Below are positions 28,232 through 28,816 of a stretch of DNA of 64,000 nucleotides, piece after piece. Source of the DNA: Chlamydiota bacterium. Lineage in GTDB: Bacteria; Chlamydiota; Chlamydiia; Chlamydiales; SM23-39. A program made the position numbers and the translations under genes. Where the stretch lies: assembly GCA_048498835.1 (NCBI GenBank), contig JBEHXF010000002.1, positions 1-64,000 of the forward strand, in the 5' to 3' direction. Each line of letters begins with the position of its first letter. Positions within the stretch are counted from its first letter, which is position 1. The notes beneath the pieces are model-generated. The model worked only from the letters and a program-made list of their open reading frames with translations. It was not told the origin of the DNA and ran no database searches.

Positions 28232-28816
28232 AATGAACAAGGATCGCCATGAAACATGGCGGCAGGATCACTGCGACCACCCCAAAAACGAAGCGTTTTT
28301 AAGGTCCCCGATCGCAGTGGCAGGATTAAATGAAGGCTTCGCTAGCAAATTTCTCTGGATGAACAAGTCGTTTTATTTGAATTTTTTTAGTGGCGAAGTT
28401 CACAAGCAACCCATCTTGGATATCCGTGACTTTGAGATAATTGATGAGCTGTGCTTGATGCTCTGGAAGGAGTGTCTTGCAACTTTTCACTTCGATAATG
28501 ACCCGATTTTCTATAATCAAATCAGCTATGAAGATTCCAGCGGGCTGACCCTGATATCTTACTTGAAATGGTTTTTCAATTTCTACACATAGACCTGTTT
28601 TTTTTAAGTCAATAACCAGGGCATTTTTATAAATCGATTCTAGAAATCCAATTCCCAGTTCATTTGCCACATTGAAGCAGCACTTTAAGATATTTTCTTT
28701 GAGGACGTAAGACATATATTTATCCTGCCACTGCGATCGGGGTCCTCAAAAACGTTTCGTTTTTGGGGTGATCGCAGTGATCCTGCCGCCATGTTTCATG
28801 GCGATCCTTGTTCATT
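28232..28816. mobile_element. GxxExxY cassette bounded by 95-bp inverted repeats (putative mobile micro-element)
   Basis: 28232-28326 is the reverse complement of 28722-28816 with 4 mismatches, and the arms enclose only the GxxExxY gene. Confidence 0.75.
28326..28715 (-). CDS. GxxExxY protein (PD-(D/E)XK nuclease-like)
   Basis: LGIGFLESIY, ADLIIENRVIIEVK, AQLINYLK, GLLVNF. Confidence 0.93.
   Translation of the reverse strand: MSYVLKENILKCCFNVANELGIGFLESIYKNALVIDLKKTGLCVEIEKPFQVRYQGQPAGIFIADLIIENRVIIEVKSCKTLLPEHQAQLINYLKVTDIQDGLLVNFATKKIQIKRLVHPEKFASEAFI

Follow-up and report, generated by a model that had tools for sequence, protein, structure and literature searches.

What kind of genetic unit is formed when a small nuclease-like gene lies alone between two long, structured inverted repeats, and can such a unit move? 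This question was raised by a 585-bp unit at positions 28232-28816 of the stretch analyzed here (the window), the first 64,000 nucleotides of contig JBEHXF010000002.1 from a Chlamydiota bacterium (GenBank assembly GCA_048498835.1). The unit carries a gene for a 129-aa protein of the GxxExxY family, and an initial annotation of the window had proposed that gene and structured ends form a selfish unit. The inverted-repeat packaging, the clade-specific words of the repeats, the sites shared with cassettes of the intervening sequence (IVS) type and the gene-less derivatives described below together point to an undescribed repeat-and-nuclease element. We give a probability of roughly 60% to the reading that the unit is selfish and insertable, a cassette with a nuclease that, we infer, recognizes its own word arrays, in a manner like that of the repetitive extragenic palindromic (REP) elements with their REP-associated tyrosine transposases (RAYT) and like that of the IVSs of 23S rRNA.

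The structure of the unit was determined by a repeat search, which found a single inverted repeat with arms of 98 nt each, 28232-28329 downstream of the gene and 28719-28816 upstream of it (on its 5' side on the minus strand); the arms are 95% complementary and 389 nt lie between them. Arms of 95 nt with 4 mismatches had been described before, and four mismatches were counted over that range, with a fifth in the 3-nt extension. The arms enclose the GxxExxY gene only, as had been claimed; the sole open reading frame (ORF) that fills the loop is 28326-28715 on the minus strand, which was recognized from the ORF list and from family profile matches. This ORF fits the loop closely: its stop codon (28326-28328) lies inside the inner end of the downstream arm, its ATG stands 3 nt from the upstream arm, and the innermost word of the upstream arm gives a Shine-Dalgarno-like AGGA 7 nt before the ATG. 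The three (CA)GGAT units per arm, with hairpins between them, that the initial annotation had seen were found again in the order word, 17-nt hairpin, word, nested 51-nt hairpin, word. On the plus strand, the words of the downstream arm are CAAGGAT (28238-28244), GCAGGAT (28262-28268) and GCAGGAT (28320-28326), and its hairpins occupy 28245-28261 (17 nt) and 28269-28319 (nested, 51 nt). The upstream arm is the mirror image, spanning 28722-28810, with the words ATCCTGC (28722-28728), ATCCTGC (28780-28786) and ATCCTTG (28804-28810), the nested 51-nt hairpin at 28729-28779 and the 17-nt hairpin at 28787-28803.

The packaging of GxxExxY genes in general was examined in 79 loci encoding relatives, taken from a species-level genome collection and including many Chlamydiota as well as Chloroflexota, Acidobacteriota, Pseudomonadota, Armatimonadota and others. 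For each gene the upstream flank was aligned to the reverse complement of the downstream flank, with up to 100 nt of the ORF admitted as part of an arm. Since four loci had too little sequence on one side or went unscored for other reasons, 78 cassettes were scored (75 loci and the three copies of the window genome itself), and 362 positions of the same length in the same loci, shifted by 1.2-2.4 kb, served as controls. A flanking inverted-repeat score of at least 15 was obtained for 68 of the 78 cassettes versus 1 of the 362 controls, and a score of at least 25 for 47 cassettes versus none of the controls. A stricter first pass gave flanking repeats in 53/77 cassettes versus 0/361 controls. 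The window copy scored 86, and the shifted controls in the 75 related loci reached 22 at most. All seven full-length GxxExxY relatives on viral contigs also had such arms. Inverted-repeat packaging is a property of the whole GxxExxY family, across phyla.

The window genome (1.97 Mb in 88 contigs) has three GxxExxY genes, the window copy on contig C2 and two others on contigs C4 and C60. Both of the others are boxed as well, by repeats of 51 nt at 90% and 56 nt at 93%, and their arms differ from those of the window copy, being built of CACCGAG and CCACAGAG words. The third copy (C60:8896-9243) has kept its 56-nt arms, 93% complementary, and is probably a pseudogene because it contains an in-frame TAG.

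A side-by-side listing of the arms showed that they are phased arrays of a 7-base word, which is mostly (A)CAGGAT. In the CAGGAT-class arms, 118 of the 306 word-to-word distances were exactly 9 nt. The other word classes were CACAGAT/CGCAGAT/CGCGGAT, CACAGAG/CACCGAG and CRCRAAG. In chlamydial cassettes, palindromes often stand in place of the short spacers between words: closed hairpins were present in 16 of 122 long spacers versus 5.0 expected from shuffles, and many more spacers were 8-nt mini-palindromes of the CGCAAGCG type, to which the folding program can give no score. The chlamydial lineage, with the window copy included, has swapped the 2-3-nt word spacers for self-folding hairpins, and since its spacers are so often palindromic, the nested hairpins of the window are an elaborate form of a lineage-wide habit. 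As single-stranded DNA, each window arm folded into exactly two hairpins with the three words left unpaired (z -4.2 to -6.6; 0/200 shuffles were as stable). Because hairpins folded out of a single strand would keep the words adjacent, while a duplex would lose the 9-nt phase, this arrangement hints that the words are read on a single strand.

The inner hairpin of the window arms was also seen elsewhere. At locus L029 (1293-1570; genome G010, contig C117), an insert of about 190 bp lies downstream of a tRNA gene and is bounded by a duplicated tRNA 3' end, and its nested hairpin (GGGGTCCTCAAAAA...TTTTTGGGGTG) is almost the same as the inner one of the window arms. The same module is present in L028 (G007) and, in weaker form, in L004 (contig C34 of the window genome). 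Since it recurs at L029, L028 and weakly at L004, the inner hairpin may be an independent small module. In an Rfam search, no family matched the arms of six loci at E values up to 1, the window locus gave no match, and nothing reached the gathering score in 15 cassette loci; L004 had a match to the suhB/mmgR small RNA at 1564-1651 on the minus strand that scored 40.8 bits, slightly short of the 41 needed for gathering.

We compared the word class of the arms with the phylogeny of the proteins. A word class was assigned only if each side contained the word two or more times. The protein tree, made by a quick search, had 93 rows; 6 duplicates and 7 rows that contained stop codons or were of odd length had been removed beforehand. 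The data showed that 36 of the 37 CAGGAT-class proteins fell into one clade (Shimodaira-Hasegawa-like approximate likelihood ratio test, SH-aLRT, 96), which contained no other class. The CRCRGAT class formed two clades, and the CACNGAG and CRCRAAG classes shared a separate clade (SH-aLRT 98) that included the C4 copy of the window genome. The class labels required 30 changes on the tree versus a mean of 50.5 after shuffling, and none of 200 shuffles was as low; the two small classes were not individually clustered (C in 22/500 shuffles, D in 500/500). For 41 rows the label was strong and the phylum known, and in 40 of them the most similar protein from a different phylum had the same word class (shuffled mean 23.5; 0/1000 shuffles reached 40), rows that are not independent, because many CRCRGAT rows share one neighbour. 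Paralogues within the window genome also differed in class, with CAGGAT on C2 and CACCGAG/CACAGAG on C4 and C60, and the C2 and C4 proteins were 35% identical. Word class tracks protein clade, not host phylum.

Word arrays were also found apart from the gene. The window genome contained 57 CACNGAG arrays (0 for the reversed-pattern control), 13 CAGGAT-like arrays (control 1) and 7 CRCRAAG arrays (control 1), and the CRCRGAT class, which flanks none of its own GxxExxY genes, gave a single array (control 0). Twelve paired, gene-less CACAGAG hairpins of 49-114 bp were present in this genome, together with six gene-less CAGGAT-class elements that have small hairpins between the words. One of these six lies in the window (5441-5554, minus strand) and was recognized by its word arrays, the words being separated by small hairpins of three different kinds; the other five are on contigs C17 (two), C18, C21 and C80. 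Several of the gene-less CAGGAT-class copies are parts of a larger repeat that they share and that contains CTCTGCG words. A one-sided CACAGAG array with no clear inverted partner, one of the approximately 57 in the genome, occupies 11277-11330 of the window.

The simplest relative was found at 24118-24160, where the word ACAAAGAT, the hairpin CGCCATG-CTT-CATGGCG and the inverted word form a perfect 22-bp stem between two convergent genes (folding z -12.2). This is the sole such site in the genome, and it looks like a minimal gene-less form, or a footprint, of the outer layer of the cassette arm. That the cassette sits inside an older terminator hairpin, an idea suggested by 24118-24160, was considered and dropped, because the outermost arm bases are the family-wide array word.

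The occurrence of arrays and gene was then compared among 41 genomes of the same family. The GxxExxY gene was present in 8 of 11 array-rich versus 5 of 30 array-poor genomes (Fisher p 0.0014; p 0.0033 without the window genome), where a genome counted as array-rich from 10 CACMGAG or 15 CARGAT arrays upward, a cut-off that was set after the counts had been seen. In genomes G006, G007, G010, G017, G032 and G054, the word class of the gene was also the abundant array class; in G032, 294 CAGGAT-class arrays were counted beside 8 GxxExxY matches. Hairpins of the same word classes that lack the gene are spread through genomes that have it. At locus L111 of G032 (1155-1448), a gene-less 294-bp CAGGAT-class inverted repeat was seen, whose 108-nt arms are 83% complementary and stand 78 nt apart; it is placed immediately downstream of a 59%-identical orthologue of the window oxidoreductase described below, in an otherwise different neighbourhood. 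Elsewhere in G032 (C1:131967-132581), CAGGAT-class arrays return with a period of 174 bp, which would suit a tandem repetition of entire gene-less elements.

Occupied and empty insertion sites were examined at the carA|carB junction, which carries a GxxExxY cassette in Wenzhouxiangella limi (locus L096), a cultivable carrier, as is Geobacter sp. AOG1 (L093). Among 26 related genomes, 19 junctions were readable. Six were empty, with a gap of 14-17 nt, two had a GxxExxY cassette, and three had a cassette encoding a four-helix-bundle protein of TIGR02436 (E 4.6e-36, 2.9e-37 and 4.3e-7), the family of the ORF in 23S rRNA IVSs; inverted arrays of the heptamer GGGACYA flanked two of these three. One junction held a gene-less 163-nt hairpin of CACGAAG words, and the remaining seven held something else, 44-630 nt in length. 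Junctions within operons that are conserved in other respects differ in whether they hold a cassette. Further sites were hemB|hemL, cbiG|cobB, a junction between two ABC-2 genes and one between subunits of a xanthine-dehydrogenase-type enzyme. Pfam typing of the neighbours covered 50 of their 143 ORFs. If the two neighbours have the same direction, the cassette gene shares it in 31 of 39 cases, in a count based on mechanically called ORFs, some of which are wrong. The hsdR flanks of cassettes were 70-80% identical in DNA across genomes labelled as different phyla; an rRNA context, considered for three cross-phylum loci with adjoining DNA of this identity, was rejected because the DNA is hsdR.

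Several further observations were made at the cassette boundaries. Cassettes were seen between cas4 and cas1 (L082, about 1800-2460) and between the type I restriction genes hsdS and hsdR (4 loci: L077, L089, L097 and L105). At L057 (2954-2991) the carA frame enters the cassette arm and its stop codon lies within a word, so that carA has an arm-encoded C-terminal extension there, and several chlamydial GxxExxY proteins have tails encoded by their own arms. At L103 (about 3400-3600), 45-nt direct repeats that include words and the start of cobQ bracket a 110-nt insert that is absent from the close relative L101.

The window protein was analyzed with profiles and structure prediction. It matched PF13366 (PDDEXK_3; E 5.8e-37, 127.1 bits versus a cut-off of 22) and TIGR04256 (E 9.4e-40, 135.6 bits versus a cut-off of 35); these were its only matches in Pfam and NCBIfam, with none to HUH Y1. 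In an alignment of 19 sequences G23, E26, Y29 and E75 were invariant and D65 and K77 nearly so, and all of these residues are present in the window protein. The AlphaFold2 model had a mean predicted local distance difference test score (pLDDT) of 93.2. Its top Foldseek match was the Cas4 protein SSO0001 (E 1.2e-5, template modelling score (TM) 0.50-0.58), followed by LHK-Exo, lambda exonuclease and MGME1, with Hjc weaker. No solved structure was matched by sequence below E 0.08, and among defence-system profiles only weak matches to Cas4 were obtained (E about 1e-3). A restriction-endonuclease-like, PD-(D/E)XK fold is predicted for the protein, and it is plausible from the model that it is an active metal-dependent nuclease. 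In a survey of PD-(D/E)XK proteins, PF13366, a large family, is entered under 'Unknown' function (PMC3424549). The window protein resembles Cas4, RecB and lambda-exonuclease-type nucleases in its predicted fold and in the conserved D...ExK residues, but it is only about 125 aa long, has no Fe-S cluster module or extra domains, and is encoded outside any CRISPR or recombination operon.

The cassette lies between two convergent genes, as the initial annotation had stated, namely a beta-carbonic anhydrase gene (27593-28192, plus strand) and a Pyr_redox-like oxidoreductase gene (28840-29856, minus strand), both identified by ORF and Pfam. The carbonic anhydrase gene is convergent with the cassette; the oxidoreductase gene is on the same strand as the cassette gene, and the cassette starts 24 nt past its stop codon in the same direction. 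A 45-bp tandem duplication, whose copies are 84% identical, was found by the repeat search at 28164-28253 (plus strand). Its first copy is formed by the 3' end of the carbonic anhydrase gene, stop codon included, and its second copy enters the outermost arm word and the first hairpin. The second copy would carry the carbonic anhydrase frame on into the arm. This duplication may be a scar of cassette insertion; together with L103, it is one of two one-sided duplications of a host gene end plus words that were found. No transposase was found in or beside the unit (ORF list and Pfam of the window neighbours). The same sources gave no recombinase gene nearby, such as the adjacent site-specific recombinase that marks an invertible switch, and the two neighbours of the window unit are metabolic genes; across loci, moreover, cassette orientation is biased toward that of the host operon (31 of 39), unlike in such a switch. 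The window copy looks intact, with the catalytic residues present, a Shine-Dalgarno-like site and arms that are 95% matched. The 585-bp unit is a hairpin-spaced CAGGAT-class cassette of the chlamydial lineage; it is probably an old member of that class and shows no sign of recent movement.

The analogy with REP/RAYT and rRNA IVSs that had been drawn for the unit held as an analogy, and IVS-type cassettes even share the carA|carB site. One comparison is with REP and REPIN elements and their RAYT genes (TnpA-REP, HUH Y1; PMC3116915, PMC3733652, PMC5581495). As in those systems, a nuclease gene that is usually of low copy number stands between inverted copies of a short repeat, the repeat class matches the enzyme clade, and the elements lie between genes and in operons. 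A further REP/RAYT trait, an inverted flanking repeat with gene-free copies in numerous intergenic places of that genome, was found here for the word arrays, the whole 98-nt arm being single-copy. The window enzyme differs in being a PD-(D/E)XK protein (PF13366) and not an HUH Y1 tyrosine transposase. In the cited account, the repeats of REP/RAYT systems are imperfect palindromes, 20-40 bp long and headed by GTAG or CGTC (PMC3733652), whereas the window arms have no such head and are phased arrays of 7-base words with hairpins between the words.

The likeness to IVSs of 23S rRNA concerns architecture. The IVS of Coxiella burnetii with its S23p ORF, and that of Leptospira cited in the same source (PMC4990558), share with the cassettes a unit of about 430-590 bp. 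Terminal inverted repeats that form a long stem with a small ORF in the loop were found here as in the IVSs, and the distribution of both is sporadic. The old hypothesis that the IVS ORF is a mobility component applies to the cassettes too. In contrast to an IVS, the window unit stands between protein-coding genes and not in a 23S rRNA helix, its ORF is a predicted nuclease and not an S23p-type four-helix bundle, and its arms are made of clade-specific words. The origin of the sporadic ORF-bearing 23S rRNA inserts has, according to that source, been open since about 1990 (PMC4990558). The literature searched, which did not extend to supplementary files and subscription journals, contained no description of inverted-repeat packaging of GxxExxY genes. 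Cyanobacterial heptanucleotide tandem repeats (STRR), which are used for fingerprinting, are likewise short intergenic words repeated head to tail, and their origin is unknown. No link between STRR and a gene was described in the literature searched.

In the mechanism that we propose, the nuclease would bind its own word arrays and nick or cut there, which we infer from the way in which word class tracks protein clade. Recognition would most likely take place on single-stranded DNA, or on RNA, with the hairpins folded out and the words adjacent. The nuclease activity might then drive the copying of the cassette and its gene-less derivatives to new sites, or homing into word-like sites. In a read-through transcript, the arm stem may let host RNase III cut the cassette out of the mRNA, as in 23S rRNA IVSs, which could account for the host's tolerance of insertions between genes of an operon or, as in the window, in a 3' untranslated region. 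The packaging of 68 of the 78 cassettes, the states of the carA|carB junction and the gene-less arrays support the proposal of a selfish unit of gene and structured ends as a reading of these data.

A number of results weigh against this reading. Ten of the 78 cassettes had no clear inverted repeat. The window unit lacks both marks of an insertion sequence or miniature inverted-repeat transposable element (MITE), a transposase and a target-site duplication on both sides, and the only duplication beside it is the one-sided 45-bp tandem. A whole-genome search with the full 98-nt arm, which might have revealed dispersed copies, returned no other copy in the genome. Arrays were found without a detected gene in G004, G008 and G042, and in G064 and G067, and the Wenzhouxiangella set gave a weak association, with the gene in 4/6 array-rich versus 6/20 array-poor genomes. 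The protein tree came from a quick and not a careful search, and co-inheritance of gene and arms alone could give the link between word class and clade, although linked inheritance leaves unexplained why the word stays fixed while its surroundings change. A lone PD-(D/E)XK nuclease cannot join DNA, so that host repair must be invoked. In one chlamydial genome, three cassette copies were 99.3-99.6% identical over 540-563 bp, which speaks for recent copying there, but the block they share continues past the 32-nt arms, on the left side for about 18-45 nt and on the right side for about 85 nt. Because the shared block extends beyond the arms, the copies did not arise by precise excision at the arm ends, and their origin looks more like recombinational copying than precise cut-and-paste.

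The expectation of empty and dispersed alleles was borne out in part, by the carA|carB states and the dispersed gene-less arrays, and it failed for a copy of the whole arm and for the window junction itself. No empty allele of the carbonic anhydrase-oxidoreductase junction was found among 30 relatives searched by DNA, 40 family genomes and a metagenome scan, because conservation of the neighbourhood does not extend to the relatives examined. A protein search found the oxidoreductase in 3 of the 40 other family genomes, in different neighbourhoods. Its orthologues in the metagenomes were 40-59% identical over most of the protein, with short partial matches of up to 76%, and 21 of the 23 that were readable had no large repeat downstream.

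The same features were weighed under other explanations. The arms could act at the RNA level only, as in an IVS, forming a stem that RNase III cuts to free the mRNA of the gene and to repair expression of the operon, while the nuclease would work in the cell or in defence, independently of the arms and without using the words as binding sites. The whole cassette, taken as RNA, folded into one long stem formed by the paired arms (-268.5 kcal/mol, z -16), the gene exactly fills the loop with its Shine-Dalgarno-like site in the stem, cassettes lie inside operons in mostly the same direction as their neighbours (31/39), and some belong to restriction-modification and CRISPR loci. The same site is used by IVS-type cassettes with a four-helix-bundle gene, and the 28-bp terminal stem of the Coxiella IVS is reported to be cut by RNase III (PMC4990558). 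A stem, however, requires complementarity only, yet a 7-base word and a 9-nt phase are conserved across phyla in a clade-dependent manner. Arm mismatches in 57 cassettes showed no G-U bias in the sense strand (92 of G-U type, 79 of A-C type and 103 transversions), and in the carA|carB orthologues a variable word position changes independently in the two arms, without compensation. Neither the mismatch types nor the uncompensated position supports selection for an RNA stem, which also counts against the RNA step of our own mechanism. Because of the missing G-U preference and the independent word changes, the words are taken as putative protein sites and RNA processing as a secondary property that would confer tolerance. 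An element acting purely on RNA also leaves the gene-less arrays at many sites and the arrival of cassettes at new sites unexplained, and we consider it unlikely.

A homing-type gene, whose nuclease cuts word-like sequences or gene-less hairpins so that recombinational repair by the host copies the gene in, with spread mainly between alleles after DNA transfer, would account for a stand-alone nuclease that the model places in the structural neighbourhood of Cas4 and lambda exonuclease. It would also suit the variable stretches past the arms that copies in one genome share, as in co-conversion, the closest empty carA|carB site, which reads like one word with one change, and the occupation of that junction in several lineages, as well as the one-sided duplications of a host gene end with words in the window and at L103 and the relatives on viral contigs. 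Classical homing genes, on the other hand, need no long inverted arrays and are usually without them, short gene-less hairpins at many unrelated sites would be left unexplained, and no direct pair of cut site and filled site at high identity was found; homing of this kind appears quite improbable. That the gene is simply resident, with palindromes that terminate transcription or stabilize mRNA, or with arms that make an invertible switch, agrees with the single window copy between convergent genes, where terminators are expected, and with the terminator-like scores of the 17-nt hairpins. Against the family-wide packaging, the clade-specific words, the empty sites in relatives, the lack of a nearby recombinase gene and a 98-nt arm with three words, which is no terminator, there is very little room for such a non-mobile gene.

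The selfish, insertable cassette with a word-recognizing nuclease is thus the reading that we prefer, and a wider one can be put forward tentatively, with more doubt than belief. GxxExxY and four-helix-bundle (S23p/IVS-type) cassettes might be two cargo types of one undescribed superfamily of mobile elements, "word-array hairpin cassettes", which would insert between genes, in operons and into rRNA. Their enzyme would recognize clade-specific 7-base words on single strands between folded-out hairpins, and gene-less hairpins would be shed in large numbers. The IVSs of 23S rRNA and many short tandem word repeats would then be by-products of such elements, and GxxExxY would be a new transposition or homing nuclease.

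For the GxxExxY family, the clade-matched repeat architecture suggests a function that can be tested and, in the CAGGAT-type words, defined substrates to test it on. The cassettes link three things so far treated apart, namely intergenic hairpin repeats, ORF-bearing 23S rRNA inserts and small orphan genes in operons and in restriction-modification and CRISPR loci. Annotation would gain as well, in that arms would not be misread as terminators or regulatory sites, nor arm-encoded extensions as real C-termini of host proteins. If the nuclease turns out to be specific for its words, this would make a second system that follows the logic of REP/RAYT with a different enzyme, and the protein could be a compact sequence-directed nuclease.

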